Below, piece by piece: positions 1,680-33,576 of a stretch of 64,000 bases of DNA. This DNA comes from Calditrichaceae bacterium. GTDB taxonomy: Bacteria > Calditrichota > Calditrichia > Calditrichales > JBFXGD01. Positions within the stretch are counted from its first letter, which is position 1; every line of letters starts with the position of its first letter. The DNA is taken from contig JBFXLE010000011.1 of the NCBI GenBank assembly GCA_050173015.1, positions 33,232-97,231 of the forward strand, given 5' to 3'. A model generated the notes under the pieces. It was not told the DNA's origin, did no database searches, and saw nothing but the letters and a program-made list of their open reading frames with translations. The position numbers were made by a program, and so were the translations under genes.

Positions 1680-2810
1680 TTGAGTATTAAAGAATTAATC
1701 ATTCAGTCTGAAAAAATAATTTCCGGCAGAATGCGGCTTGACTGGTTCAGTCGATTTTACGGCGTACCGGTTTATAAACAATATCGTGATAAAATATCCG
1801 AAGAAGAAGTGCGCCTGATCCAGGATGAATTGCTCAATGACGGCATCTTCTCGGAAGCGGAAATGTCCGCAAAAAAATATTATCTCCGATTGTTGCAGGG
1901 CCGCAGGATAGAGCGGAAAAATAAATATTTTTTACATATCTTCCTTTTTTTGCTGACAATCATTACTACTTCCATGACGGGCGCTCTGCTGCGCGGGAAG
2001 GATCCGTTTGTATCCTGGGAAAATTTCTCTTACGGTTTTGCTTATTCATTCGCGCTGTTGGCAATATTATTTGCTCATGAGATGGGGCACTACCTGTATT
2101 CACGCTATTATAAGGTCGATGTGACGCTCCCGTATTTTATTCCGTTTTTTATTCCCGGTTTTCACCCGGGGACACTTGGCGCGTTTATAAAAATGCGTTC
2201 ACCCATACCGGATAAAAAAGCGCTTTTTGATATTGGAATCGCAGGACCGCTGGCCGGATTTATATTAAGTGTAATCTTCCTGATAGCGGGCTTTTCGATG
2301 CTTCCGGATGAAGCCGGGATATATAATTATATCGCTCAGATCCATCCGCTCGATTCGCCGGACGGGGTCGCTCTGACGCTTGGGAATACGCTTTTGTATG
2401 ATTTTATCGGATCATTTTTTGGAGGTCAGCGTCTTCCCATGAGTGAAATGTATCATTTCCCTTTTATATTCGCCGGTTGGTTTGGGCTTTTGGTTACGGC
2501 GATTAATCTGATGCCGATCGGACAGTTAGACGGCGGTCATATCACATTTGCGATGTTTGGGCATCGGGCGCGGTTTGTAGCCATGGGGGCTTTTGTCTTG
2601 CTGATTCTGCTAAACGTATATTTGATATCAAATTATAATTCATATATCTGGGTGCTTTGGTCCGTTCTGATTCTTGTTTTTGTCCGATTCAAACATCCGC
2701 CGACGCTCAATGACAGGGCCGGGTTGGGAAGTGCCCGGATTGTTCTCGGGTGGATATCTTATGTTATATTTATCGCGTGCTTTTCGCCAATGCCGATCTA
2801 TTTGTCTTGA
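1680..2810 (+). CDS. Peptidase M50 (site-2 protease family) integral membrane metalloprotease
   Basis: HEMGHY zinc motif, a later NLMPIGQLDGGH motif, and many hydrophobic segments. TTG start. Confidence 0.75.
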   Translation: MSIKELIIQSEKIISGRMRLDWFSRFYGVPVYKQYRDKISEEEVRLIQDELLNDGIFSEAEMSAKKYYLRLLQGRRIERKNKYFLHIFLFLLTIITTSMTGALLRGKDPFVSWENFSYGFAYSFALLAILFAHEMGHYLYSRYYKVDVTLPYFIPFFIPGFHPGTLGAFIKMRSPIPDKKALFDIGIAGPLAGFILSVIFLIAGFSMLPDEAGIYNYIAQIHPLDSPDGVALTLGNTLLYDFIGSFFGGQRLPMSEMYHFPFIFAGWFGLLVTAINLMPIGQLDGGHITFAMFGHRARFVAMGAFVLLILLNVYLISNYNSYIWVLWSVLILVFVRFKHPPTLNDRAGLGSARIVLGWISYVIFIACFSPMPIYLS

Positions 2811-2956
2811 TCGAAGACTTGTGAAAAAGATAAACGAAGAGATGGTGGAAATAGTTTTATGTTTATCAAACAAGCCGGCTATCCGCCGGGCTTAACCCAG
2901 AATTTTATAACAGAATTACAGTTTTATATGAAAAGTTCCGGTATTGAAAGGAAAAG

Positions 2957-3547
2957 ATGTTTTTTACGATTTTAATGATATTGATCAGCATTTTTGTTGT
3001 TTGGGGAGTGTTGGTTTGGCTGCGCAAAACATCCTGGGACGCGGTTCACCGAAATTTGCTGGATCTTGAGGATAATTATGAAGGCCGCGTAATTCGCAGA
3101 GGATTTGCTTCCAGACCTATTTTCCACGGGAAATATAATAACTTCGGTTTAACGGTTAATTTTAGTACGGCAAAATCTACCGACGGCCGACTGACGTATA
3201 TTGATATCAGTTATGAAAAAAGCGGTTCGCTTTCCTTGTCGATTTCGGACAGAAAATGGCTGGAATCACAAGAGGCGGGGGAATTACAGGATTATAAATC
3301 AATTATAACCGATTCCGGCGCCGAGCTGATCGTCCGGCCTGTTTCGGTGGAAGCTGTACAACGCTTGCTGAATAAAAAATCATTTCTGGATTTATTGAAC
3401 AATTTTGACAATCTGGCATATATTTTTATCGGAAAAAGCGGCGTAATATCTGAATTTATTACGCGGGAAGTGATCAAAGAGACGGAATTTTTAAAAATGA
3501 ATGAAAGAATAATTTTAATCGATAAACTTATTAAGGCGGTCGGGTAA
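2957..3547 (+). CDS. Hypothetical membrane-anchored protein
   Basis: 196-aa ORF with one N-terminal TM helix (FFTILMILISIFVVWGVLVWL). Its stop overlaps the era start. No recognisable family motif. Confidence 0.5.
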   Translation: MFFTILMILISIFVVWGVLVWLRKTSWDAVHRNLLDLEDNYEGRVIRRGFASRPIFHGKYNNFGLTVNFSTAKSTDGRLTYIDISYEKSGSLSLSISDRKWLESQEAGELQDYKSIITDSGAELIVRPVSVEAVQRLLNKKSFLDLLNNFDNLAYIFIGKSGVISEFITREVIKETEFLKMNERIILIDKLIKAVG

Positions 3548-4440
3548 TGGAAACAATTTCGTCGGAATTCAAAGCCGGTTACGTGACAATAATCGGTTTG
3601 CCGAATGCGGGAAAATCAACATTGATGAATTCCCTGCTTGATATCAAATTGTCAATTATATCATCAAAGCCGCAAACTACCCGAAGGAGAGTTCTGGGGA
3701 TCCTAAACAAAAAAGAACTTCAGGCGATTTTTATTGATACACCGGGGATTCTGGAACCAAAATACAATTTACAAAAACGCATGATGCAAAATGTGGGCAG
3801 CGCCCTTGATGACGCGGACATGATACTGATGATTGTTGACGCGAAACAAAAAACGCATCCTGTGAGACTTGATATTAACGCCTTGAACCCAAAACAAAAA
3901 CCGGTAGTTTTGGTTCTGAATAAAGTGGACATTATACCTAAAGCCGATTTGCTTCCAATTATTGAAAAATACAGCACACATTATCCTTTCAAATCGATTA
4001 TTCCCATATCCGCCCTAAAGAAAGACGGATTGGCGGAACTTGAGAAGGAAATGGCTGCTCTGCTGCCGCTCAGTCCGCCATATTACCCGCCGGATACATT
4101 AACGGATCGTCCGGAGCGTTTTTTTGTGGCTGAAATTATCAGAGAGAAAATATTTGAAAAATTCTGGCAGGAAATCCCATATTCGACTGAAGTGGAAATT
4201 GAGACTTTTACTGAAAGAGAAAACAGTAAGGATTATATTTCAGCAGTGATTTATGTGGAAAGAAAATCTCAGAAGGGTATTCTGATCGGCAGTAAAGGAG
4301 AGGCGCTCAAGTCTATCGGTTCTGAAGCTCGTAAGGAAATCGAAACTTTTTTAGATCGGGGAATTTTTCTTGATTTAAGAGTTAAAGTGAATGAAGACTG
4401 GCGAAAAGATGACAAGAAATTAAATCGGCTCGGATACTGA
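3547..4440 (+). CDS. era: GTPase Era
   Basis: G1 GLPNAGKST, G3 DTPG, G4 NKVD. The C-terminal KH-domain pattern is SQKGILIGSKGEALKSIG. Confidence 0.95.
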   Translation: METISSEFKAGYVTIIGLPNAGKSTLMNSLLDIKLSIISSKPQTTRRRVLGILNKKELQAIFIDTPGILEPKYNLQKRMMQNVGSALDDADMILMIVDAKQKTHPVRLDINALNPKQKPVVLVLNKVDIIPKADLLPIIEKYSTHYPFKSIIPISALKKDGLAELEKEMAALLPLSPPYYPPDTLTDRPERFFVAEIIREKIFEKFWQEIPYSTEVEIETFTERENSKDYISAVIYVERKSQKGILIGSKGEALKSIGSEARKEIETFLDRGIFLDLRVKVNEDWRKDDKKLNRLGY

Positions 4441-4454
4441 TCAATTAAAATTTA

Positions 4455-5204
4455 ATGTTTAACTCATCCGGCAGCAAACGAGAAAGTATAAAGACGACTA
4501 TGCGCAAGAAACTCTTACTCTTTGATATAGACGGCACACTGCTTTTAGGACGCGGTATTCCTAAAAAAGTATTTTTGGAGGTGGTGCGTCATCGTTTTCC
4601 TGATTATCAAAATGGAGAAACACTGAGGTTTTCCGGGATGACAGATCCAAAAATTGTGCATGATCTGCTGATGGCGAATGGATTTAAAGAAAAGGTTACG
4701 CCTGAACTGGAAACAGAGATACTGGATGAGTTTGTCAGGGTTCTGGAAGAAAGAATTACACCCGAAAATCCCCCGCTTGTCCTCCCGGGTGTCGTGGAGC
4801 TGCTTGATCGCTGTACCAGGGAGGAGAACATTTTTCTTGGTTTGGTTACCGGCAACATTATGCAGGGGGCAAGAATTAAGTTAACGGCGGCAGGTTTATA
4901 TCATTATTTTGCGGTCGGCGCGTTTGGGAGCGACCACATTGACAGAGCGTTTTTGCCGCCACTTGCCATATCCCGGTCAGAAAAATATTTTGGACAGACT
5001 TTTGCCCCTGAGGATGTCTGGATAATTGGAGACAGCATCCATGATGTAACATGCGCGAAAGCAAATAAATTGAAATGTCTGGCGGTATACACGGGATTTA
5101 CGTCAAAGGATGAATTACTCGATGAGAATCCGGAATACTTACTTGAAAATTTTCTGGATACGAATAATGTAATGTCTATTTTTGAAGATAAACTAAAAAA
5201 ATGA
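4455..5204 (+). CDS. HAD-superfamily hydrolase (phosphoglycolate-phosphatase-like)
   Basis: Motif I is LLLFDIDGTLL; later motifs are LVTGN and IIGDSIHD. The start is uncertain (alternative ATG at 4500). Confidence 0.8.
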   Translation: MFNSSGSKRESIKTTMRKKLLLFDIDGTLLLGRGIPKKVFLEVVRHRFPDYQNGETLRFSGMTDPKIVHDLLMANGFKEKVTPELETEILDEFVRVLEERITPENPPLVLPGVVELLDRCTREENIFLGLVTGNIMQGARIKLTAAGLYHYFAVGAFGSDHIDRAFLPPLAISRSEKYFGQTFAPEDVWIIGDSIHDVTCAKANKLKCLAVYTGFTSKDELLDENPEYLLENFLDTNNVMSIFEDKLKK

Positions 5205-5281
5205 TTTGCTATTAAATGAATGCCAAATATATCAAATAACAAGTAAGCTTACGATAAAACCGGATTCACAGGAGCGGGGCA

Positions 5282-5725
5282 ATGAACGGACATTCTTATC
5301 TCTTTACGGAAGGAAAATGGAAAGCGACCGGCATATATACCGATGGCGATGGAATATCCTATAATGCAACGGGAGAAGTAATTGTTAAACACAGTACCGG
5401 GTTGTGGATGAGCGACGGAATTATGAATGTGAAGGGATTGAACGACGCCGAATTTCAAAATAATTACAAAATAATTCCGTTTACAGAAGGCAAGGATTTC
5501 ACTACATGGAAATCGATCAATCCGGTTTTCGGATTACTGACCGGTCGTTTTGTGGTGATCGCGGATTCAATTCTTTCTGTTTACGGCTCAGAAAACGGAA
5601 TAATCAGTGGTTCGGAAAGCCTGCTTCAAATTAATAATCGTCTGTACAGAAATTGGGGCTTTGTGTTCAAAGGTACCGATAAATTATCATCCTGGGCAAT
5701 GGATTTAGAAAAACAAGATCTGTGA
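5282..5725 (+). CDS. Hypothetical protein
   Basis: 147-aa ORF with coding-like composition and no recognisable motif. Confidence 0.45.
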   Translation: MNGHSYLFTEGKWKATGIYTDGDGISYNATGEVIVKHSTGLWMSDGIMNVKGLNDAEFQNNYKIIPFTEGKDFTTWKSINPVFGLLTGRFVVIADSILSVYGSENGIISGSESLLQINNRLYRNWGFVFKGTDKLSSWAMDLEKQDL

Positions 5726-5951
5726 GATAAAGACTTAATATAGAAAGGCAAAACAATTTAATTAAACTGGGATTTATTCCGAAGCCCAAACTTGTTAGCT
5801 CAAGTTAGTTTTGATCACAAAAACACAAAAGGCATTTTGATTACGCTTCAAAATTATTTATATTTTTATCTTTTGTGTAAAAAAATAGTTGAATTTAGGT
5901 GATCATAATTGAAATAAAAATATATACATTTGACAAAACAGAGGAGAATTC

Positions 5952-7238
5952 ATGCTCAAAAATCATCCTAAAGGGTTGATGACCCTGTTTTTTACAGAGA
6001 TGTGGGAACGGTTCGGATTTTATACCATGCTTGCTGTTTTTGTGCTTTACATGGATGAGTCCTTCGGCTGGACGGATTCGCAGAAGGGTGATGTTTACGG
6101 GATATTCCTGGCCTTTGTGTATTTTACTCCGATTGCAGGTGGATGGATTGCAGACCGTCTTTTGGGTTACAGAAAAACCATCATGTTGGGCGCTGTGATT
6201 CTGGGTATCGGATACGCCATGCTTGCCTATTCCGGTCTGGAAAAACTGTGGCTTTTTTATAGCGCGCTCACGGTCATGGTTATAGGTAACGGATTATTCA
6301 AAGCGAATATATCGGTTTTGGTTGGCAATTTATATGAACCCGGCAGTCAATTTAAAGATGTCGGTTACAATATTTTCTATATGGGAATTAATCTCGGGGC
6401 TTTCATCGCTCCGCTTGCCGCCACTTGGTTGCATGATTATTTCGGTACTTATAACGCTGCTTTTGGGGCTGCGGCTGTCGGAATGGTTATGTCGTTGCTT
6501 GTATTCGAAGTATTTAAAAAGAATTATATCCATGCTGATAACAAAAATGTCGCGGGCGCTGCAAACCAGAAATTGCAGGAAGGCGAACAATTGAGCCCGG
6601 AAGTAGAAAAAGAGCGAATATTTGCACTGGTCACGGTATTTGCCATTGTTGTTTTCTTTTGGATGTCATTTCATCAGAACGGTTTCGCGTTAACTCTGTT
6701 TGCTCAACGTTCAACAGTAAAACTTGATTGGCTGAAACCTGAAACCTATGCTACATTTAACCCGTTATTTATACTTATTCTCACTCCGGTAGTGGTTGCA
6801 TTTTTTAATTGGTTGAAGAAAAAAGGAAAAGAACCCTCAACACCGGCAAAAATGGGATTTGGTATGATGATATCCGGAGCGGCCATGCTGGTAATGGTCA
6901 TTGCCTCTCTGATGGGTGGAAACGCGGATGCAAACGATATGTCACCAAACTGGCTGATCTCAACATATTTTGTGATCACTTTCGGTGAATTGTTTTTGAG
7001 TCCGATGGGTCTTTCATTTGTGTCAAAGGTAGCGCCGGCGCGTATGCGCGGGTTAATGATGGGTGGCTGGTTTGCCGCCACCGCCATCGGTAATTATCTA
7101 TCGGGTTTTATCGGCAAATTTTATAACACCTTAACCCATGATCAGTTCTACGGAATATTGGTTGTCCTGCTGCTTCTTTCAGCTTTAATGATCAGGATCA
7201 GACTGAATAAATTAAAACATGCTGTCAGGGGTACCTGA
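5952..7238 (+). CDS. POT/PTR2-family proton-dependent oligopeptide transporter (MFS)
   Basis: GAGGAG lies upstream of the ATG. It has the N-terminal FFTEMWERFGFYTM signature and GGWIADRLLGYRKTI. Polytopic membrane protein. Confidence 0.85.
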   Translation: MLKNHPKGLMTLFFTEMWERFGFYTMLAVFVLYMDESFGWTDSQKGDVYGIFLAFVYFTPIAGGWIADRLLGYRKTIMLGAVILGIGYAMLAYSGLEKLWLFYSALTVMVIGNGLFKANISVLVGNLYEPGSQFKDVGYNIFYMGINLGAFIAPLAATWLHDYFGTYNAAFGAAAVGMVMSLLVFEVFKKNYIHADNKNVAGAANQKLQEGEQLSPEVEKERIFALVTVFAIVVFFWMSFHQNGFALTLFAQRSTVKLDWLKPETYATFNPLFILILTPVVVAFFNWLKKKGKEPSTPAKMGFGMMISGAAMLVMVIASLMGGNADANDMSPNWLISTYFVITFGELFLSPMGLSFVSKVAPARMRGLMMGGWFAATAIGNYLSGFIGKFYNTLTHDQFYGILVVLLLLSALMIRIRLNKLKHAVRGT

Positions 7239-7257
7239 TCACATAGTTTTTTATAAA

Positions 7258-7292
7258 AGAGGTATTCGAATGTTCGGATACCTCTTTTTTTT
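7258..7292 (+). terminator. Rho-independent terminator of the POT transporter gene
   Basis: 12-bp stem agaggtattcga / tcggatacctct (one G:T wobble), loop atgt, followed by a run of eight T. Confidence 0.75.
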
Positions 7293-7414
7293 GTCTTTCT
7301 AATTACATTGAATTAAACAGATTATGGCATTATCTTATCAAAACGATGTAATACTCTTTTTCTTTTGAATGATGTTGGATAGTAGAAAAATGAATCGATA
7401 TAAGAGGTCTCCGA

Positions 7415-9250
7415 GTGGGGTATAAAAGCACAGCGGAATGTGTGAATGATCTGGAAAAACATGGTCATCTTATAAAAATAAAAGAAGAAACAGATCCATA
7501 TCTGGAGATGGCGGAAATTCAGAGAAGGGTTTATGAAGCGGACGGGCCCGCAATATATTTTGAGCGGGTAAAAGGGAGTCCTTTTCCTGCCGTGTCAAAT
7601 CTGTTTGGATCCTTAGCCAGAGCAAAATTTATCTTTAGGGATACTCTTGATGCTGTAGAGAAATTAGTCGCTCTTAAAGGTGATCCCTCCCTGGCGGTAA
7701 GAAATCCATCAAAATGGAGCGCCATTTCAAAAACTTTGTATCATTCATGGCCGAAAAGAGTCTTCGGGGGCCCGGTACTTTCCCAACAAACAACGATCGA
7801 TCAATTGCCGCAGATCCAATCCTGGCCCGGGGATGGGGGTGCGTTTATCACCCTTCCTCAGGTGTACACTGAGCATCCCGAATTTCCGGGTATTATGAAA
7901 TCTAACCTTGGAATGTATCGAATTCAGCTTGCCGGTAACCGTTATGAATTGAATCATGAAGTGGGGCTGCATTATCAGATCCACCGGGGAATTGGAACCC
8001 ACCATGCCGCCGCGTTACGTAGAGGTGAGCCTCTTAAAGTCAGTGTCTTTGTCGGAGGCCCGCCCGCTAATACTTTCGCGGCGGTGATGCCTTTACCCGA
8101 AGGACTGCCGGAGGTTGCTTTCTCGGGCGCTCTGAACGGCAGACGTTTCAGGTATTTACGCAGAAAAGGATATACAATCGCGGCAGAAGCCGATTTTTGC
8201 ATAACCGGTACGGTAACGCCGGGCGATCTGCTTCCCGAAGGGCCCTTTGGAGATCATCTTGGATATTACAGCATGAAACATGATTTCCCGGTGCTTAAGA
8301 TCGATAAAGTGTATCACAGAAGGGATGCGGTCTGGCCTTTTACGGTAGTCGGCAGGCCACCACAGGAGGATACGGTTTTTGGACAGCTTGTTCATGATAT
8401 CACCGGACCGGTAATTCCTGAAACCATTGCCGGGTTAAAGGCTGTCCACGCGGTTGACGCCGCCGGAGTCCATCCGCTATTGCTGGCCATCGGCAGCGAG
8501 CGTTATGTGCCCTATGAAAATGACCGTCAACCCCGCGAAATTCTGACAATCGCTAACGCCATCCTTGGATTTGGACAATTGTCACTGGCGAAATATTTGT
8601 TTATTACCGCGCGGGAAGATAATCCCGGGTTGAATATCCACGAGATTGATGAATATCTAATGCATGTCTTTGAGCGGGTGGATTGGAAACGTGATCTTCA
8701 TTTTCAGACAAATACCACCATTGATACTCTGGATTATTCCGGCACCGGATTAAATGAAGGGTCCAAGGTAATTATCGCGGCAGCAGGAAGAAAGCGCCGG
8801 ACTCTTTTACAGAAATTACCGCTAAATTTGAAGCTCCCCGATGACTTTAACGATCCAAAGTTAGTCATGCCGGGGGTTATAACCATAAAAGGTCCAAAAT
8901 TTGAAGAAACAAAATTCGGATATCAGGCTATGGAACAACTTAACGCATGGCTGGATACCCACAAGGGCGTGGGCGGAATCGCGATGATCGTGGTGGTCGA
9001 TGACAGTAAATTTGTTTCTCAGAACCTGAAAAATTTCTTATGGGTGACATTTACAAGATCAAATCCGTCCCATGATATTTACGGAGTCGACAGCTTTTCT
9101 TCTCATAAACATTGGGGATGCGGCGGGCCGTTGATTATTGATGCCAGAATCAAGCCGCATCACGCGCCTCCGCTTGTCGAGAATCCGGAAATCACTAAAA
9201 GAGTGGATGCTCTCGGCGCCAGGGGCGGTAGTTTGCACGGAATAATTTAG
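7415..9250 (+). CDS. UbiD-family (prenylated-FMN-dependent) decarboxylase, long menaquinone-biosynthesis-type form
   Basis: GTG start 7 nt after AAGAGG, 611 aa. The N-terminus YKSTAECVNDLEKHGHLIKIKEE and overall UbiD-like layout are recalled from the family. Confidence 0.8.
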   Translation: MGYKSTAECVNDLEKHGHLIKIKEETDPYLEMAEIQRRVYEADGPAIYFERVKGSPFPAVSNLFGSLARAKFIFRDTLDAVEKLVALKGDPSLAVRNPSKWSAISKTLYHSWPKRVFGGPVLSQQTTIDQLPQIQSWPGDGGAFITLPQVYTEHPEFPGIMKSNLGMYRIQLAGNRYELNHEVGLHYQIHRGIGTHHAAALRRGEPLKVSVFVGGPPANTFAAVMPLPEGLPEVAFSGALNGRRFRYLRRKGYTIAAEADFCITGTVTPGDLLPEGPFGDHLGYYSMKHDFPVLKIDKVYHRRDAVWPFTVVGRPPQEDTVFGQLVHDITGPVIPETIAGLKAVHAVDAAGVHPLLLAIGSERYVPYENDRQPREILTIANAILGFGQLSLAKYLFITAREDNPGLNIHEIDEYLMHVFERVDWKRDLHFQTNTTIDTLDYSGTGLNEGSKVIIAAAGRKRRTLLQKLPLNLKLPDDFNDPKLVMPGVITIKGPKFEETKFGYQAMEQLNAWLDTHKGVGGIAMIVVVDDSKFVSQNLKNFLWVTFTRSNPSHDIYGVDSFSSHKHWGCGGPLIIDARIKPHHAPPLVENPEITKRVDALGARGGSLHGII

Positions 9251-9295
9251 CGCCAATTTGAAAAATTAAATTCTCTATCCAAAAAGGAGCGGGAA

Positions 9296-10654
9296 ATGAG
9301 CAGAAAAATAGTAGTCATCGGCGGTGTTGCCGCGGGTATGTCCGCTGCAAGCAGAGCCAGAAGAAATGATCCTGATGCATCGATCATTGTCTTTCAGAAA
9401 GAAAACGCGGTTTCTTACGGATCCTGCGGTTTACCCTATTATATTGCTGACGATATCAAAGAAGCTGAAACTCTGATTGCCATTTCAGCAGATGAATTCA
9501 GGCAGAAACGAAATATTGAAGTCCGTTTAAATCACGAGGGAATATCCTTTAATCCCAGGGAGAAGACGGTCGAAATACGAGATCTCGGGACAGGGATGAT
9601 TCATGACTATCCTTATGATAAATTAATTATTGCCACCGGCGCGCGGGCGGCGTTACCTCCCATTCCCGGCAAAGAATTAAAAAATGTTTTTGTGGTCAGA
9701 AATCTGACCGACGGACAGAACATAAAATCACACATCGAGAATGATCGTCCGGCAACTGCGGTAGTTGTGGGCGGCGGCTATATCGGTCTGGAAATGGCCG
9801 AAGCTCTCTCAAGGCAGGGGCTTCGTGTTTCGGTTGTCGAGGCGCAGGAACGGGTTATGCTGAACATAGACCCTGAATTATCTGAAAAAATTGAATCAGA
9901 AATGGAAGAAAAAGGGTGCAAAGTATATACTTCAAACGGTGTTCAGGCCATTCTCGGCTCCGATCGTGTAAATAGTGTGCGTTTAATGAACGGGGATGAG
10001 ATTGCCGCTGACATGGTGATTTTATCGGTTGGAGTAAAGCCAAATGTTGAATTTGCAATTACCGGAGGCGTACGTACAGGAAAAACCGGCGCCATAGAGG
10101 TCAATCAGAAAATGGAAACAAATGTCCAGAGCGTATATGCCGCGGGTGATTGCGCGGAAGTAAAAAATCTGGTTACGAATAAAATGGATTATATCCCATT
10201 GGGGACAACAGCCAATAAACAGGGGCGGGTTGCGGGTGATAACGCCAGCGGCCGGTTTGCCAGATTTTCGGGTGTGGCAGGTACAGCGGTGGTGAAAATT
10301 TTTGATCTGGAGGTGGCGCGGACGGGAATCACAACCACACAAGCTCTAAATTTAAAGATGAATCCACGTTCCGTGATGATAACCGGTAAATCAAGGGCGG
10401 GATATTATCCCGGTAAAGAAGATATTACCCTGAAATTAATATTCCGTGGAGATAACGGCCGGTTACTCGGCGCTCACATGATGGGTAAAGAAGGGGTAGC
10501 AAAACGGATTGATGTTTTCGCGACAGCTTTACAGCAAAAAATGACAGTGATGGAAATCTCAGAACTGGATTTGAGCTATGCTCCGCCGTATGCTCCGGTA
10601 TGGGATCCGATACTGATCGCCGCAAATCAGGCAGCTAAGTCATTCGAAAAATAG
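9296..10654 (+). CDS. FAD-dependent pyridine nucleotide-disulfide oxidoreductase (CoA-disulfide reductase / NADH oxidase family)
   Basis: AAGGAG RBS. Motifs: VVIGGVAAGMSAA (FAD), the single redox Cys motif SYGSCGLPYY, VVVGGGYIGLE (NAD) and AAGDC. Confidence 0.8.
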   Translation: MSRKIVVIGGVAAGMSAASRARRNDPDASIIVFQKENAVSYGSCGLPYYIADDIKEAETLIAISADEFRQKRNIEVRLNHEGISFNPREKTVEIRDLGTGMIHDYPYDKLIIATGARAALPPIPGKELKNVFVVRNLTDGQNIKSHIENDRPATAVVVGGGYIGLEMAEALSRQGLRVSVVEAQERVMLNIDPELSEKIESEMEEKGCKVYTSNGVQAILGSDRVNSVRLMNGDEIAADMVILSVGVKPNVEFAITGGVRTGKTGAIEVNQKMETNVQSVYAAGDCAEVKNLVTNKMDYIPLGTTANKQGRVAGDNASGRFARFSGVAGTAVVKIFDLEVARTGITTTQALNLKMNPRSVMITGKSRAGYYPGKEDITLKLIFRGDNGRLLGAHMMGKEGVAKRIDVFATALQQKMTVMEISELDLSYAPPYAPVWDPILIAANQAAKSFEK

Positions 10655-10661
10655 ACCGGTC

Positions 10662-11195
10662 TCATCGCTCAATATAATTTTTTAGCGAGGATAGATTCAA
10701 ATTTATCAGCTCATTGAATGCGGGCCGGACAATTATAAAGTCCATTAGTTTTGACAGTACGGGAGGCGCCATATAAGTGATTTCCCAAATGGCTTCCGTG
10801 CTTCCGTCCGGTAGTGCTTCCAGTACAATGGACTGCCGGATATTATGAATTAACGATTTCCTTACCGTATCGATCTGAGTAAAAGTGATCCGGTCAGATG
10901 ACTCGTAAATTTCTATCCGTTCTTTAATTTTCAGCTCTCTTCCGATGATTGAATAATCTACAACACGCAGGGATTTATTAAGTGAGACTTCGGGATAAAA
11001 TTCTATCTGCCGTATAGATTTATACCAATTCGAATATTCATTTGGTCCGGTAACCGCTGCCCAGACAACCGTTTCGGGCGCCTCAATTGTAATCGATTTC
11101 CTTATACTGGTTTCGGGATTTAATATGATCCCGGTTACTAAAATGATAGAAAATAGTACGATAAGAATTGCTGAAACCACAGCTGAAGTTTTCAT
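10662..11195 (-). CDS. Membrane-anchored SRPBCC (START/Bet v1-like) fold protein
   Basis: I prefer the internal ATG at 11195 (MKTSAVVSAILIV...). It overlaps the upstream TGA in an ATGA junction. One TM helix, then the ITIEAPETVVWAAV... pattern of SRPBCC proteins. The longer ORF-track start (11300) would overlap the upstream T9SS tail. Confidence 0.6.
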   Translation of the reverse strand: MKTSAVVSAILIVLFSIILVTGIILNPETSIRKSITIEAPETVVWAAVTGPNEYSNWYKSIRQIEFYPEVSLNKSLRVVDYSIIGRELKIKERIEIYESSDRITFTQIDTVRKSLIHNIRQSIVLEALPDGSTEAIWEITYMAPPVLSKLMDFIIVRPAFNELINLNLSSLKNYIER

Positions 11196-25604: not shown

Positions 25605-26060
25605 ATGAACTGTAATTTTAAGAAATTGCTTACAGGGAAAGCATTGCTGATTAGTCTGACGATATTCATTTTAATAGTTTCCTGTGACAATGATTCTGCG
25701 GGGCCATGTGCGCATATCTATGAAGAGCCAATTCTCAGTGTGATTTCCGCTAGTGCTGTCGATACTCAGCAGGGAATTGACAGGATTGAGCTTAAATCAA
25801 TAAAAATTGACGGCATAGACGCTGAACTCAATATTCTATTGGACCAGTCATCAAATATTAATCGGCTGGACAGTACGCTGATCTGCAATATTCCCTGTGC
25901 CTTCGGCACTCAAACGGGGGAATACAGTTTTATGGTCTCCGCGGAAGGCTACAGGGATTCCCTCTATACACTGGATGTGCAATATAAGTACTCTGAGGGG
26001 GGCTGTCCATCCCGGTCATGGGGGAGTCAGGAGATGATGATAGAGTTAGCGCTTCAATAA
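25605..26060 (+). CDS. Hypothetical lipoprotein
   Basis: GAGGA RBS. The signal peptide ends in the lipobox-like LIVSCDN. 151 aa, no family motif. Confidence 0.5.
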   Translation: MNCNFKKLLTGKALLISLTIFILIVSCDNDSAGPCAHIYEEPILSVISASAVDTQQGIDRIELKSIKIDGIDAELNILLDQSSNINRLDSTLICNIPCAFGTQTGEYSFMVSAEGYRDSLYTLDVQYKYSEGGCPSRSWGSQEMMIELALQ

Positions 26061-28837: not shown

Positions 28838-30391
28838 ATGAGACCGGTTTGTTTAATTGTTAGAGACGGTTGGGGGTATAATGAAAATCCCAAAGGCAAT
28901 GCGGTGATGGCCGCTCATACTCCCAACATTGATTCATATAAAAAGAATTATCCCTGGATGTTGATTAAAACATCCGGCGAAGCGGTAGGGTTACCGGAAG
29001 GTTTTCAGGGTTCCAGTGAAGTCGGACATCTTAATATGGGCGCCGGGAGGATAGTTGTTCAGGAGCTAAAAAGAATCGACGAGGGATTTAGAGACGGTTC
29101 GATTTTCAGAACCGAAAAATGGACGGCGCTGATCGGGCAGTGGAAAGAGAATAAATCACAACTTCATTTAATGGGACTGCTGCAGGATGAAGGAGTCCAT
29201 GCCCATATGGATCATCTATTTAAGATTATCCGGCAGGCCCGTAGTGAGTACGCGGAAGGGAAAATCGTTATACATCCTTTTCTCGATGGCAGGGATACCC
29301 CGCCAAGAAGCACGCTCGAGTATATCGCCAAACTGAAATTGGTAATGCAGGAGGCGGGAGGCTGCAAAATCGGTACCGTGATGGGACGATACTACAGTAT
29401 GGACCGTTCCAGGGACTGGAAACTGACGGATAAAGCCTATAACTGTATTGTCAATCTCGATGGCCGCGGGACGGAGACGGCTGAAGACGCGGTGAGAGCC
29501 TCTTATGAAAATGATAAAACTCCGGATAATGTGGATATGTTTGATGAGTATATCCCACCTTATGTTGTCGCCGGATATGAAGGCGTGAAGGACGGAGATT
29601 GTGTTTTTCATACAAATTACCGTCAGGACCGCGCCATACAGCTTACCATGGCTTTCGTTGATGAGCGTTATCCCGGGAAACTGCAAAAAAAGGTCCGTGT
29701 CCGTTATCTTGGATTTACCCGTTATTATGATGAGTTTAAGGAATATCTCATGGGAGCGATGGGATCCGGCGGGGCCATGAATAAACTTCTTGGGGAAGTG
29801 ATTTCAGAAGCTGGTCTTAAACAGCTGCGCTTGTCCGAGACACAAAAATTTCGACATGTCACAAGCTTCTTTAACGGTAAGTTGACAACACCTTATCCGG
29901 ATGAAGACCAGGTTGAGATTAAAAGCGATATTGATCCCGCGGCATTTGCAAGTCACCCGCAGATGGAAGCGGCTGCTATTACCGATGAGCTATTAAAAAG
30001 AGTTGAAAATAATCCATATGGTTTCATTCTGATCAATTATCCGAACGGCGATATGGTTGGCCATACAGGCGATTTTAACGCTGCAAAAAAAGCTGTTGAA
30101 ATAGTAGATGAAAATATCGGTAAAGTAGTGAAAAGACTTCTGCAACTGGACGCCCATATTCTTATCACAGCCGATCACGGCAATTCGGAGCAGATGTTGG
30201 ATTATGAAACCGGCATGATAAAAACAAGTCACACCACTTTTCCGGTGGAATTGATCTATATTGCCAAAGACGCGAATGTGTGGAAGCTCAAGGATGACGG
30301 AAAACTCGCGGATATAGCGCCAACTATTTTGACGTTGCTTGGTCTACCGATCCCAAAAGAAATGACAGCAGACGTGTTGATAAAAAAATAG
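28838..30391 (+). CDS. gpmI: 2,3-bisphosphoglycerate-independent phosphoglycerate mutase
   Basis: 517 aa. Motifs RDGWG, SSEVGHLNMGAGR, YPNGDMVGHTG and ITADHGN. Confidence 0.95.
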   Translation: MRPVCLIVRDGWGYNENPKGNAVMAAHTPNIDSYKKNYPWMLIKTSGEAVGLPEGFQGSSEVGHLNMGAGRIVVQELKRIDEGFRDGSIFRTEKWTALIGQWKENKSQLHLMGLLQDEGVHAHMDHLFKIIRQARSEYAEGKIVIHPFLDGRDTPPRSTLEYIAKLKLVMQEAGGCKIGTVMGRYYSMDRSRDWKLTDKAYNCIVNLDGRGTETAEDAVRASYENDKTPDNVDMFDEYIPPYVVAGYEGVKDGDCVFHTNYRQDRAIQLTMAFVDERYPGKLQKKVRVRYLGFTRYYDEFKEYLMGAMGSGGAMNKLLGEVISEAGLKQLRLSETQKFRHVTSFFNGKLTTPYPDEDQVEIKSDIDPAAFASHPQMEAAAITDELLKRVENNPYGFILINYPNGDMVGHTGDFNAAKKAVEIVDENIGKVVKRLLQLDAHILITADHGNSEQMLDYETGMIKTSHTTFPVELIYIAKDANVWKLKDDGKLADIAPTILTLLGLPIPKEMTADVLIKK

Positions 30392-30646
30392 CCCGGTCGA
30401 TGGTTTGGGAAAAATTGTCCACTGATTTCACGGATTACACAGATTACTTAGAAAAAAAATATATCAATTTAATTCTAATCCGTGAAAATTAGTGAAATCC
30501 GTGGACCATCTTGAAAGGCCATCGAAAAAGAAACAAGCCCGCGAATTACACGAATTACCACTAAAATGAAAAAAAGTAATTATTAATTGGTGAAAATTAG
30601 TGAAATTAGTGGGCCATCTTAAAAAACCGCAAGAGAAGAAGAATTG

Positions 30647-30728
30647 TCCACAGATTGCACAGATTATTTAGAAAAATAACTATATAAATTTAATTCTAAT
30701 CCGTGAAAATCGGTGAAATCCGTGGACC
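30647..30728. repeat. Representative module A (imperfect 82-nt hairpin; 90-91 nt in copies carrying the extra 9-mer)
   Basis: The sequence is gtccacagattgcacagatta - A/T-rich loop tttagaaaaataactatataaatttaattc - taatccgtgaaaatcggtgaaatccgtggac. The outer 6 bp gtccac/gtggac are perfectly complementary. Confidence 0.85.
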
Positions 30729-30758
30729 ATCTTGAAAGGCCATCGAAAAAGAAACAAG

Positions 30759-30836
30759 CCCGCGAATTACACGAATTACCACTAAAATGAAAAAAAGTAA
30801 TTATTAATTGGTGAAAATTAGTGAAATTAGTGGGCC
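30759..30836. repeat. Representative module B (imperfect 78-nt hairpin, diverged homologue of module A)
   Basis: The sequence is gcccgcgaattacacgaattaccac - loop taaaatgaaaaaaagtaattatt - aattggtgaaaattagtgaaattagtgggc. It has the same arm/loop/arm layout, and the following linker starts with the same c/tatctt. Confidence 0.85.
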
Positions 30837-32109
30837 ATCTTAAAAAACCGCAAGAGAAGAAGAATTGTCCACAGATTGCACAGATTATTTAGAAAAATAA
30901 CTATATAAATTTAATTCTAATCCGTGAAAATCGGTGAAATCCGTGGACCATCTTGAAAGGCCATCGAAAAAGAAACAAGCCCGCGAATTACACGAATTAC
31001 CACTAAAATGAAAAAAAGTAATTATTAATTGGTGAAAATTAGTGAAATTAGTGGGCTATCTTAAAAAGCCGCAAGAGAAGAAGATTGTCCACAGATTGCA
31101 CGGATTACACAGATTATTTAGAAAAATAACTATATAAATTTAATTCTAATCCGTGAAAATCGGTGAAATTCGTGGACCATCTTGAAGGGCCATCTAAAAA
31201 GAAACAAGCCCGCGAATTACACGAATTACCACTAAAATGAAAAAAAGTAATTATTAATTGGTGAAAATTAGTGAAATTAGTGGGCTATCTTAAAAAGCCG
31301 CAAGAGAAGAAGATTGTCCACAGATTGCACGGATTACACAGATTATTTAGAAAAATAACTATATAAATTTAATTCTAATCCGTGAAAATCGGTGAAATTC
31401 GTGGACCATCTTGAAGGGCCATCTAAAAAGAAACAAGCCCGCGAATTACACGAATTACCACTAAAATGAAAAAAAGTAATTATTAATTGGTGAAAATTAG
31501 TGAAATTAGTGGGCTATCTTAAAAAGCCGCAAGAGAAGAAGAAATGTCCACAGATTGCACGGATTACACAGATTATTTAGAAAAATAACTATATAAATTT
31601 AATTCTAATCCGTGAAAATCGGTGAAATCCGTGGACCATCTTGAAAGGCCATCGAAAAAGAAACAAGCCCGCGAATTACACGAATTACCACTAAAATGAA
31701 AAAAAGTAATTATTAATTGGTGAAAATTAGTGAAATTAGTGGGCTATCTTAAAAAGCCGCAAGAGAAGAAGATTGTCCACAGATTGCACGGATTACACAG
31801 ATTATTTAGAAAAATAACTATATAAATTTAATTCTAATCCGTGAAAATCAGTGAAATTCGTGGACCATCTTGAAAGGCCATCGAAAAAGAAACAAGCCCG
31901 CGAATTACGCGAATTACCACTAAAATGAAAAAAAGTAATTATTAATTGGTGAAAATTAGTGAAATTAGTGGGCTATCTTAAAAAGCCGCAAGAGAAAAAG
32001 AATTGTCCTCAGATTGCACGGATTACACAGATTGTTTAGAAAAAAAATATATATAAAATTAATTCTAATCCGTGAAAATCAGTGAAATTCGTGGACGATC
32101 TTTGCTTTT

Positions 32110-33576
32110 CTATGGCAATTTTGCCAGTTCGATGATCAGATTTTTATGCATCTGATTCAAATTGGCAAGGGATCCGCTGTAATTATTAGCAATAATGGAA
32201 AAGGCAATCAACCGCCCCGTCCTGCTTTGCACATAACCGGACAGACTGCGCACCCGGGCGAGTGTGCCTGATTTTAATCTGGCATTATTTGCGAGAATGG
32301 TGTTGGATCCGAATGAACTAAATGAAGCCGGGTCGGCAGGATCTCCCGCAATGCCGAGTGAGTTGTAAAAATAGTCGAAGTATGGATGAGAAGTCATATT
32401 TACAAGCAATTGGGTTATGGATTCGGTCGTAATACTGTTTTCCCTGGAAAGACCGGAGCCGTCATACAGATGCATGCCGTCCGTTGATATTTTGTTGTTT
32501 TCACAAAAATTATAAAGAGAATGGATACCTTGTTTGATTGATGAGTTTCCGGTTTTTTCAAGAGCGATCAGGCGCAGGAGCTGCTCGGCGTAGAGATTCA
32601 TACTGCGTTTATTTGTGTAATATACGATTTCCTTTATGGGTGATGACATCGTTTTGTGTATTAATTTTGCAGAATTATAGCTTATGGTCTGATTCTGTTT
32701 TTTCGGAATTCCGCTTATGGCTATACCCATCTTTTTAAGTTGATCGGAAAAATATTGGGCAGTGAACAAAGCGGGGTCAGGGATCGAACCCTTAATGGCG
32801 AACTCACTCACACCCGCGGGAACGGTTCCCCGCAGAGTTGCCGTATATTGCCCGGGAGCGCAATATATATAACCGCGATCACCGGAGCCTCTGCGTCCGG
32901 TTAACATATGATTGTCGAAGCTGAGTCCGGGAATAACCGGTTCTGTTCTAAGTGTGTTGGCGGGTTGACCGTTGAATTTGCCCGGTTTGAAATAAAGAAA
33001 ATAAAGATTGTCATGGATTGATAAAGCATTGGTGCCTGCGCCGTAGTAATTTCCAATATCACCCCAGGTCCAGTTATCGGGTACGGCGTTACCGCTAAAA
33101 AGCAAATCATCAGCGATAATCGCGCCGCGGATTTCCCTGATGCCCTTTTTCCCGACAGCAACAGCCCACTCAGCCATCAGATTATTTAGCGAAGCGGAAC
33201 TGTCTATTCTGTCCGAGCCGAGTGCCGGATCTCCTCCGCCTTTAATGTAGATATTTCCGGTTAGAATACCATCAGGTCCTATATTTCCGTCATAATAGAG
33301 GTGTGTTTCGATTCGATGATCAGGGCCGAGCAGATCCAGAGCGGCCGCGGTGGTTAGTAATTTTAGGCCCGAAGCTGGGGCCAGACTGGCGTTGCCGTTA
33401 AAATCGATAATAACTTCAGAATTATCCGTGTATTGAGCATAAATACTCCATTGCGCATGACGGAGGCTGTAATAATTCTGATAAGAGTCAATCAGTTTTT
33501 GGAGCTGGTTTTGCGCAAAGAGCAGTGCGGGTATTATCAATATTAATATCAAAGTCGTTATTATTCTATTTCGCAT
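32110..33576 (-). CDS. dacB: D-alanyl-D-alanine carboxypeptidase/endopeptidase, PBP4 (peptidase S13) family
   Basis: Signal peptide, SxxK in APASGLKLLTTAAAL, and the typical PBP4 length and pattern (GGGDPAL, DGSGLSR, KSGTL). Confidence 0.85.
   Translation of the reverse strand: MRNRIITTLILILIIPALLFAQNQLQKLIDSYQNYYSLRHAQWSIYAQYTDNSEVIIDFNGNASLAPASGLKLLTTAAALDLLGPDHRIETHLYYDGNIGPDGILTGNIYIKGGGDPALGSDRIDSSASLNNLMAEWAVAVGKKGIREIRGAIIADDLLFSGNAVPDNWTWGDIGNYYGAGTNALSIHDNLYFLYFKPGKFNGQPANTLRTEPVIPGLSFDNHMLTGRRGSGDRGYIYCAPGQYTATLRGTVPAGVSEFAIKGSIPDPALFTAQYFSDQLKKMGIAISGIPKKQNQTISYNSAKLIHKTMSSPIKEIVYYTNKRSMNLYAEQLLRLIALEKTGNSSIKQGIHSLYNFCENNKISTDGMHLYDGSGLSRENSITTESITQLLVNMTSHPYFDYFYNSLGIAGDPADPASFSSFGSNTILANNARLKSGTLARVRSLSGYVQSRTGRLIAFSIIANNYSGSLANLNQMHKNLIIELAKLP

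Follow-up and report, generated by a model that had tools for sequence, protein, structure and literature searches.

A tandem hairpin array in a Calditrichaceae genome belongs to a widespread family of intergenic repeats associated, in Bacteroidota, with GxxExxY genes

A tandem array of two hairpin modules lies between two convergent housekeeping genes

We analysed a stretch of 64,000 nucleotides (the window; GenBank assembly GCA_050173015.1, contig JBFXLE010000011.1, positions 33,232 to 97,231) from a metagenome-assembled genome (MAG) of a Calditrichaceae bacterium. It contains a 1.7-kb tandem array of imperfect hairpins (30409..32112), whose arms are themselves made of short direct repeats. 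The array is a local amplification of two diverged copies, modules A and B, of a dispersed intergenic repeat family, both copies being devoid of an open reading frame (ORF). In Bacteroidota, members of this family enclose or abut genes for GxxExxY proteins. In the window, the array fills the intergenic gap between two convergent housekeeping genes, beginning 25 nt past the iPGM stop codon and finishing 13 nt short of that of DacB:

28838..30391, plus strand: iPGM, 2,3-bisphosphoglycerate-independent phosphoglycerate mutase (Pfam iPGM_N/Metalloenzyme, NCBI name)
32110..33576, minus strand: DacB, D-Ala-D-Ala carboxypeptidase (Pfam Peptidase_S13), convergent with iPGM

A flavoprotein, a rubrerythrin and similar genes are also found in the neighbourhood, and the window codes for a protein sorted by the type IX secretion system (T9SS). 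Tandem Repeats Finder reported a 229-bp unit present in 7.5 copies with 96% matches (30409-32102). Each unit is made of the module A hairpin, a spacer, the module B hairpin and a purine-rich spacer; units 2 and 3 measure 221 and 220 bp, versus about 229 bp for the rest. In total, 8 modules A (82-92 nt) and 7 modules B (78 nt) were found, all of them imperfect hairpins without assigned strand:

30417..30506: A1, 3+3 sub-repeats, variant CACTGATT/AATTAGTG
30537..30614: B1, left arm CGC/CAC-GAATT, right arm AATTRGTG
30646..30727: A2, short form, left arm of 2 and right arm of 3 sub-repeats (9-nt deletion)
30758..30835: B2
30867..30948: A3, short form
30979..31056: B3
31087..31177: A4, full form, cacagattg-cacggatta-cacagatta ... 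aatccgtga-aaatcggtga-aattcgtgg
31208..31285: B4
31316..31406: A5, full form
31437..31514: B5
31546..31636: A6, full form, reference for folding
31667..31744: B6
31775..31865: A7
31896..31973: B7, second sub-repeat changed from CACGAATT to CGCGAATT
32005..32096: A8, last copy, abutting the 3' end of the DacB gene

The left arm of module A reads CACAGATTG-CACGGATTA-CACAGATTA and its right arm AATCCGTGA-AAATCGGTGA-AATCCGTGG; for module B these are CGCGAATTA-CACGAATTA-CCAC and AATTGGTGA-AAATTAGTGA-AATTAGTGG. Both modules follow one diverged design, namely stem, A/T-rich loop, stem, ATCTTnAAAnnCC and a purine run. The original prediction, made from the letters of the window, had described inverted clusters of a 9-10-nt motif, phased at about one helical turn, around A/T-rich cores of about 30 nt. 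This anatomy was confirmed: sub-repeats are spaced by 9 nt in left arms (20 of 20 intervals) and by 10 or 9 nt in right arms (15 each). The core length holds for module A, whereas the loop of module B is 24 nt long. The predicted right arm of A (aatccgtga-aaatcggtga-aatccgtgg), both arms of B (cgcgaatta-cacgaatta-ccac and aattggtga-aaattagtga-aattagtggg) and the C-to-T variant of A4, A5, A7 and A8 were all found. The full left arm (cacagattg-cacggatta-cacagatta) is present in A4-A7, but not in the segment for which it had been described (30647-30836, A2 and B2), A2 being of the short form cacagattg-cacagatta.

The motif had been estimated at roughly 80 copies, and a strict count gave exactly this number (35 C[AG]CNNATT and 45 AATNNG[TC]G, or 47 per kb). 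With the same patterns, the remaining 62.3 kb of the window contained 53 sub-repeats (0.85 per kb), and 30 of the 31 multi-repeat arms of the window fall inside the array. All 32 matches to CACRGATT are within it (4.2 +/- 1.9 in shuffles), as are all 35 matches to CACNNATTNCACNNATT with at most 1 mismatch (0.45 expected). The stems are broken every 3-5 bp by 1x1 mismatches, which is why a search of the array for inverted repeats with an exact 9-nt seed reported none; the hairpins were recognised by folding and custom alignment.

The array recurs at this very site in a relative whose DacB is 97% identical, and whose contig stops inside it. All other public contigs with the flanking genes (L132-L134 and L189) end at or inside it as well, and short-read contigs of the iPGM gene break there. 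The array is unstable, variable between strains, and an assembly breakpoint. In L132, strain-level differences concern which unit type stands second in the array. We consider that the window array by itself is probably a non-essential amplification.

The repeat family extends over about ten bacterial phyla and into phages

Contigs representing one genome per species were scanned with GTGAAAATNNGTGAAATNNGTGG, a right-arm pattern common to A and B that specifies 19 bases. At least 120 bacterial genome loci in about 10 phyla were matched, against 5-10 by our estimate of chance. The matches listed come from Bacteroidota (Flavobacterium, with several loci per genome, Capnocytophaga, Chryseobacterium and Prevotellaceae), Ignavibacteriota, Calditrichota, KSB1, Cloacimonadales, Akkermansia and other Verrucomicrobiota, Kiritimatiellia, Planctomycetota, Cyanobacteria, Chloroflexota, Acidobacteriota, Nitrospirota and one Gemmiger; none among them is from Proteobacteria or Actinobacteria. 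At least 6 loci with the exact 19-base pattern were found in Flavobacterium sp. JAS. Modules A and B of the window match the arm patterns of the family, and can be aligned, column for column, with 25 hairpins of other genomes. The window array is a member of this widespread family, and the 9-10-nt period of its sub-repeats recurs in other genomes, in about 10 phyla and in phages.

In viral contigs, GTGAAAATNNGTGAAATNNGTGG was matched in 11 cases and a composition-matched, permuted control pattern in none. The 10/10-spaced form ATCCGTGNNNATCCGTGNNNATCCGTGG was found at 55 viral loci (76 sites). The contigs bearing the motif are real tailed phages, some of them Mu-like; MuA transposase was seen in L139, MuB in L128 and Gam in L128, L150 and L178, and other motif-rich contigs carry gpA- or T4-type terminases. 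No protein common to all motif-bearing phages was found among the 717 ORFs of the viral loci. The triple repeat reaches 8-12 copies per phage genome, placed in short intergenic gaps. In L131 (IMGVR_UViG_3300009285_005437, 2533-10706), 8 solo triple-repeat arms lie on one strand only, each following a stop codon and preceding the Shine-Dalgarno/ATG of the gene that comes next (for example CCACGGATtagCACGGATtaaCACGGATtAGGGAGGAacggatcATG), a layout that resembles stoperators or start-associated sequences. Mycobacteriophage stoperators likewise come in short gaps and mostly in one orientation, but they are single 13-bp sites specific to one phage cluster and its repressor, whereas the present repeats are common to unrelated phages and chromosomes.

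Rfam gave no match at gathering threshold in the window, and chance-level miRNA/snoRNA matches only when the array was searched at E up to 10. Among 18 related loci the sole match was the unrelated Flavo-1 RNA (RF01705, 44.1 bits), in Flavobacterium sp. MC2016-06 (L033, 2377-2444, minus strand), about 190 nt away from where three tandem hairpins of the family are clustered. Searching the open literature for motif words of 10-17 nt returned primers or nothing, with no description of the motif, nor is the arm motif described in the papers found on repetitive extragenic palindromes (REP). The family is one of widespread intergenic hairpin repeats, undescribed in the literature searched.

Its elements occur as single hairpins, solo arms or tandem arrays. 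Tandem hairpin arrays were found in other lineages (L016, L033, L050, L111, L204, L212 and L215), and tandem amplification is a recurrent habit of the family. The array of an uncultured Bacteroidia (L050, 2600-4400) is a dense mosaic in which left arms recurring with a 37-nt period are mixed with full hairpins and another palindromic repeat (tgtcccagccagccccgatttcggggaca), and adjoins an AbiEii toxin gene. The Gemmiger genome (L028, L076 and L119), the only one from Firmicutes among the matches listed, has family arms adjoining long 'tgatgcgcatcaacaccaccctt' tandem repeats; those arms, in L076, make up the base of a palindrome whose own arms measure about 100 nt.

Arm sequences are conserved beyond what pairing would require

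Arms of the family repeat a 7-nt core, C[A/G]C-N-R-A-T, directly 2-4 times (typically 3), with linkers of 2-3 nt between the copies, for a period of 9-10 nt. Outer ends are CCAC...GTGG or CCGC...GCGG, and loops measure from 3 to more than 120 nt. An inverted partner within 200 nt accompanies about 60% of exact arm matches, and about 40% are solo arms. Among the paired exact matches the outer ends are always CCAC...GTGG, and the loop is 4-124 nt long (median near 32). Lineages differ by the flavour of the heptamer: CACGAAT in Flavobacterium, CACGGAT in the Planctomycetes-Verrucomicrobia-Chlamydiae (PVC) group, CACAGAT and CGCAGAT elsewhere. The CGC flavour reads ccCGCAGATnnCGCAGATnnnCGCAGA...ATCAGCGaaATCAGCGaaATCTGCGgg, and the left arm of window module B (CCCGCGAATT) belongs to it.

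We then compared sequence conservation with pairing, position by position. GTG/CAC and AAT/ATT are hardly ever missing or unpaired, and 94% of cases at the first variable base covary, as A:T or G:C. Watson-Crick pairs make up only about 45-60% of cases at the linkers and at the second variable base of inner repeats, where A.A and G.A oppositions are numerous. An alignment of 27 sequences has 98.4% of its cells paired and a covariation of 0.278 (0.125 in shuffles). However, 9 of the 16 pairs never vary, and much of the apparent covariation, the check suggested by the original prediction, tracks the lineage flavours. Within Flavobacterium, complementarity at the variable base (64 of 116) is in modest excess over within-genus shuffles (52.6 +/- 4.0). 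In the orthologous cyanobacterial loci L009 and L055, the sub-repeats read ATCCGTG/ATCTGTG versus ATCAGTG three times; since the variable base differs in all three at once, the sub-repeats of an arm evolve in concert. What is copied in the arms is a conserved sequence module, on which the extra selection for pairing is only weak.

An element acting as RNA, like the intervening sequences (IVS) of rRNA, is the first alternative to consider. Interrupted stems of about 28-30 bp would be RNase III substrates or stabilise mRNA 3' ends, and would insulate or excise the content of the loop, including the GxxExxY ORF, the sub-repeats being the way in which stems grow. The folding data agree with it. 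The 236-nt unit folds far better than shuffles on both strands (z = -5.8 for plus, -6.5 for minus), and the pairing and covariation of the family alignment go in the same direction. Between the middle base of CAC and the GTG across the stem, G.T makes up 18 of 20 non-Watson-Crick pairs; at free positions G.U outnumbers A.C (44 versus 25), a weak signal confounded by the orientation of the matches. Stem length is also that of the Coxiella 23S IVS, which RNase III cleaves and whose terminal stem of 28 bp encloses an ORF (PMC4990558). Phage solo arms, finally, are biased in orientation relative to genes (19 versus 5, with crude gene calls), as expected of an RNA or of a polar DNA role.

Several observations do not fit with this RNA-level explanation. 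Recognition of double-stranded RNA requires no particular sequence, and the heptamer is conserved across phyla. Linkers and second variable bases are paired about half of the time, and solo arms are unable to fold. No strand is preferred: the linker asymmetry (A.A versus T.T) bears no relation to the coding strand (14 versus 19), and the two modules of the window behave oppositely, A being more stable as a minus-strand RNA (-33.8 versus -25.6 kcal/mol) and B as a plus-strand RNA (-21.2 versus -14.8 kcal/mol). This justifies the caution of the original prediction, for which the mismatches in the arms left the transcribed strand undecided. Canonical terminators stand upstream of several copies (L033, L041 and L100), and no Rfam family covers the repeat. 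We consider the RNA-level explanation unlikely. The long imperfect hairpin proposed initially is thus structurally true, but incomplete as a description, because of the invariant pairs, the half-paired linkers and the solo arms. For the same reasons, together with heptamer conservation across phyla, the lack of strand bias and the copies past terminators, the conservation pattern points to sequence-specific recognition more than to pairing alone, and the sub-repeats are probably protein-recognition modules.

The minus strand of the array was also considered as a set of tandem small-RNA genes, similar to the NsiR1 array of cyanobacteria, module A providing the promoter, and hairpin B with its U-rich tail the terminator. 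A promoter-like TTCACG-N17-TATAGT is present on this strand in each module A (30458-31845), CUUGUUUCUU comes after hairpin B, and 7 terminator-like sites were counted, against 1.7 +/- 1.2 in shuffles. Module A is more stable on this strand than on the other, and units could give tandem transcripts of about 150 nt. Nevertheless, the promoter-like count (9) does not stand out from shuffles (6.9 +/- 2.6), all copies being one repeated instance of a consensus that may not be that of Calditrichota, and minus-strand folding is the poorer one for module B, the supposed terminator. Moreover, family members elsewhere do not have these flanks; those of Flavobacterium have T runs before the stem and A runs after it. 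Such small-RNA genes are, in our view, very improbable.

Elements are intergenic and their neighbours share no function

Family elements are intergenic, in tandem, convergent and divergent gene contexts, and nearer to gene ends (137) than to gene starts (99). Many start within a few bases of the upstream stop codon, and 26 of 222 arm ends are 10-30 nt from a start codon. The 99 start-proximal proteins fall into 134 different Pfam families with no enrichment, which ruled out a regulon or a linked gene. At orthologous Flavobacterium loci, the arm beside the downstream gene is kept while the partner arm and the loop diverge; in one such set, a conserved solo right arm stands upstream of the Bacteroidetes -7 box before alaS.

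These properties bear on the possibility that arms are sites for a host DNA-binding protein unrelated to GxxExxY, with three head-to-tail sites per arm on one helix face. An architectural or topological factor, such as gyrase at REP/bacterial interspersed mosaic elements (BIME), or a response-regulator-type activator would be candidates. The 9-10 bp period with its conserved GTG/AAT core, the solo right arms conserved by gene starts, the arm ends close to start codons and the presence of the motif in diverse phages having no common protein are all consistent with it, as is the location of the array between convergent genes, where positive supercoils would accumulate. Opposing it are the lack of a coherent regulon among neighbours and of a candidate protein, and a solo-arm orientation to the downstream gene that differs between bacteria and phages. 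It also leaves the GxxExxY genes inside loops unexplained, and we hold it for rather improbable.

The original prediction had also drawn an analogy with plasmid origins and centromeres. Short direct repeats in inverted clusters do flank A/T-rich spacers here, and the likeness to plasmid iterons and type Ib/II centromeres (parC, parH, omega heptads) extends to repeat length (7-11 bp), the mixture of direct and inverted copies and the near-helical-turn phasing. Those systems, however, occupy one locus per replicon beside rep or par. No rep or par gene was found near the array, which is therefore not a plasmid origin or centromere, and the context is one of chromosomal housekeeping genes. The motif is dispersed over several loci per genome and in phages, without enrichment of any neighbour, and blastn of the unit gave no match in plasmid or phage collections. 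The analogy is abandoned, an iteron origin or partition centromere being extremely unlikely; what survives of the iteron-like protein binding, out of its plasmid setting, is a cross-phylum repeat family tied to GxxExxY genes.

Other motif resemblances were examined as well: DnaA box, parS/NBS half-sites, MraZ, CtsR, OmpR/PhoB boxes, CsrA GGA sites, sigma-28, sigma-54 and extracytoplasmic function (ECF) promoters, the Bacteroidetes -33/-7 promoter and 16S complementarity. They were rejected, because each fits one flavour only or has the wrong spacing or distribution.

In Bacteroidota, family members enclose or abut GxxExxY genes

One of the motif matches, L016, contains between its arms an ORF of 123 aa (Pfam PDDEXK_3, PF13366; NCBIfam TIGR04256 'GxxExxY protein'). 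L016 and L018 came from motif matches; the other GxxExxY loci were fetched without using the DNA motif. The arrangements found were the following:

L016, Flavobacterium MAG: four tandem left arms, gene, one right arm
L018, Capnocytophaga granulosa: gene embedded in ATCCGTG repeats, arms degenerate
L190-L199, L016 orthologues, Flavobacterium, miaB / sigma-54 activator gap: left arm gcCACGAATttCACGAATttCACGAAT, gene, right arm ATTCGTGaaATTCGTGaaATTCGTGgc
L200, Chitinophagales: downstream CGC-flavour hairpins
L201/L202, Cyclobacteriaceae, after valS: left arm, gene, right arm
L203-L205, Chryseobacterium, after msrA: gene within tandem hairpin array
L206, Vicingaceae: hairpin upstream, right arm downstream
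L207-L209, Flavobacterium ardleyense: downstream hairpins
L210/L211, JGI metagenome contigs: degenerate arms downstream, by eye
L212, viral contig: tandem array of hairpins, one of which has the gene in its loop
L213/L214, after gpsA: degenerate arms flanking the gene on either side
L215, Autumnicola, after nrdA: gene flanked on either side by tandem hairpin arrays

A strict regular expression was applied to 12 of the 14 tabulated loci (L213-L215 left out). An arm was found within 300 nt of the GxxExxY gene in 10 of the 12, about 10 of these loci being independent, and the two negative ones (L018 and L210) have degenerate arms visible by eye. Often the gene is inside the hairpin loop. Besides L016 and its Flavobacterium orthologues, eight Bacteroidota loci and one viral contig have CGC-flavour arms or hairpin arrays adjoining the gene. 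Motif-selected loci, outside the match by which they were selected, gave a background of 0.082 arms per kb, or about 0.05 per 600 nt.

At every locus where it could be read, the GxxExxY gene is co-directional with the upstream host gene. In the four loci read for this purpose (L198, L201, L203 and L206), the left arm begins 6-12 nt past the stop codon of that gene. Because of this constant orientation right after stop codons, GxxExxY is probably read through from upstream, a further point for the RNA-level explanation discussed above.

GxxExxY proteins of ORF-bearing members are about 125 aa long with an intact D...ExK nuclease motif, of which residues D67/E77/K79 are invariant. The AlphaFold2 (AF2) model has a mean confidence (pLDDT) of 92, and its best fold matches are Cas4 SSO0001 and lambda exonuclease; as modelled, GxxExxY is predicted to be a PD-(D/E)XK protein with a Cas4-like fold. 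No solved close relative was found. The family comprises 31,704 clusters at 50% identity. In a survey of PD-(D/E)XK proteins it is listed as a family of unknown function with multiple transfers between divisions (PMC3424549), and elsewhere in the literature searched 'GxxExxY' or PDDEXK_3 receives passing mentions only, its function not being known there. Many of the representatives P0247-P0396 match over two stretches and are 260-295 aa long, being either fusions of tandem domains or products of read-through between adjacent genes.

Comparison with known repeat systems

The closest known system is the REP/REPIN-RAYT pair (REPIN, REP doublets forming a hairpin; RAYT, REP-associated tyrosine transposase or TnpA-REP) of Proteobacteria. 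In both cases short imperfect palindromes are dispersed over intergenic DNA, often past gene 3' ends and sometimes clustered, and a single- or few-copy gene of nuclease type is flanked by its own repeats. The exact pattern gave several loci per genome here. The differences are as follows: the flanked gene of RAYT systems is an IS200/IS605-like Y1 (HUH) transposase, whereas here it is a PDDEXK_3/GxxExxY protein of about 125 aa; a REP has one GC-rich stem with a 5' GTAG, instead of three turn-phased heptamers per arm; and REP sequences are lineage-specific, unlike the present core motif, common across phyla. The array is best filed as a form of a known kind of feature, dispersed intergenic palindromic repeats with a cognate nuclease gene.

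The 23S rRNA IVS of Coxiella, Leptospira and Salmonella are comparable in having a stem around a small ORF of unknown function, and are regarded as selfish (PMC4990558). They are inserted in helix 25 or 45 and carry S23p four-helix-bundle ORFs, whereas the present elements are intergenic and carry GxxExxY. The array lies between protein-coding genes, no rRNA match was obtained in the window, and none of the 63 small ORFs adjoining arms is a 23S_rRNA_IVP or four-helix-bundle (S23p/Avd-like) ORF. BOX elements of Streptococcus pneumoniae and Correia elements of Neisseria are also modular intergenic hairpins, with internally repeated or variable-number modules, that can sit in transcripts and near promoters. 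They are however restricted to a genus or species and have no embedded nuclease gene, and the TA duplications and integration host factor (IHF) site of Correia elements are not seen in the family.

Three other classes were rejected. For a MITE (miniature inverted-repeat transposable element), flanks beyond CCAC/GTGG are complementary (TTTGCCAC...GTGGCAAA; GGAACCAC...GTGGTTCC) and not direct repeats, and no transposase lies between the arms. For a clustered regularly interspaced short palindromic repeat (CRISPR) array, the whole 229-bp unit repeats at 96% identity, without unique spacers. For a type III toxin-antitoxin, whose ToxI-like tandem repeats measure 34-46 nt and immediately precede the endoribonuclease toxin gene, the repeats here have a 229-nt period and lie between the 3' ends of convergent housekeeping genes.

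A proposed repeat-nuclease pairing as the best explanation

The explanation we prefer, to which we give an even chance, is that the array is an ORF-less tandem amplification of A and B within a REP/RAYT-like pairing of repeat and nuclease. A small nuclease gene would reside inside its own repeat, and be outnumbered by gene-less copies scattered after stop codons. Such gene-less copies would be amplified head-to-tail by slippage or unequal recombination. The turn-phased heptamers would be the selected part of the repeat, serving as recognition modules for an oligomeric protein, the obvious candidate being the GxxExxY nuclease, which might read them on duplex DNA or on an extruded DNA hairpin. 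RNA hairpins would, in that case, be a by-product. As the 64-kb window has no GxxExxY gene, any action on its array would be in trans.

Several facts weigh against this explanation. The link to GxxExxY holds for Bacteroidota and one viral contig only (none was detected in viral contigs with a first alignment, and one, L212, with a broader alignment), while the window is from Calditrichota, so that carrying the link over is an extrapolation; the lists of homologues consisted entirely of Bacteroidota. Neither tblastn nor hidden Markov model (HMM) searches detected a GxxExxY homologue in the 64-kb window, where all copies are ORF-less, and no GxxExxY gene was found in the non-Bacteroidota loci examined. 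The association could instead reflect a gene that prefers to insert in hairpin loops, and binding or cleavage of the arms by GxxExxY is something that we purely infer. No target-site duplication or other footprint of transposition was seen. The excess complementarity within Flavobacterium, the G.T bias at the CAC middle base and the orientation of phage solo arms, described above, also belong here.

A bolder version, which we regard as tentative and rather doubtful, makes GxxExxY the homing or mobilising enzyme of the iterated-arm repeats; it would read three turn-phased heptamers per arm and spread by invading gene-less loops. That gene-less hairpins also ride on phages, as this version proposes, is equally uncertain. 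If correct, it would provide a function for the GxxExxY family and explain both the widespread intergenic repeats and the assembly-breaking arrays.

If the link to GxxExxY is true, a repeat family of at least ten phyla and many phages gains a candidate cognate enzyme, and a protein family of tens of thousands of clusters a candidate substrate. The three-heptamer arm may constitute a simple recognition code, in DNA or RNA. In practice, the hairpins and tandem arrays break short-read assemblies, and elements placed right after stop codons and next to start codons could affect the expression of housekeeping genes.

A separate 30-nt tandem repeat (1.9 copies, 79% matches) is present in the window at 25775-25833, in an intergenic or small-ORF region, and appears unrelated to the array.

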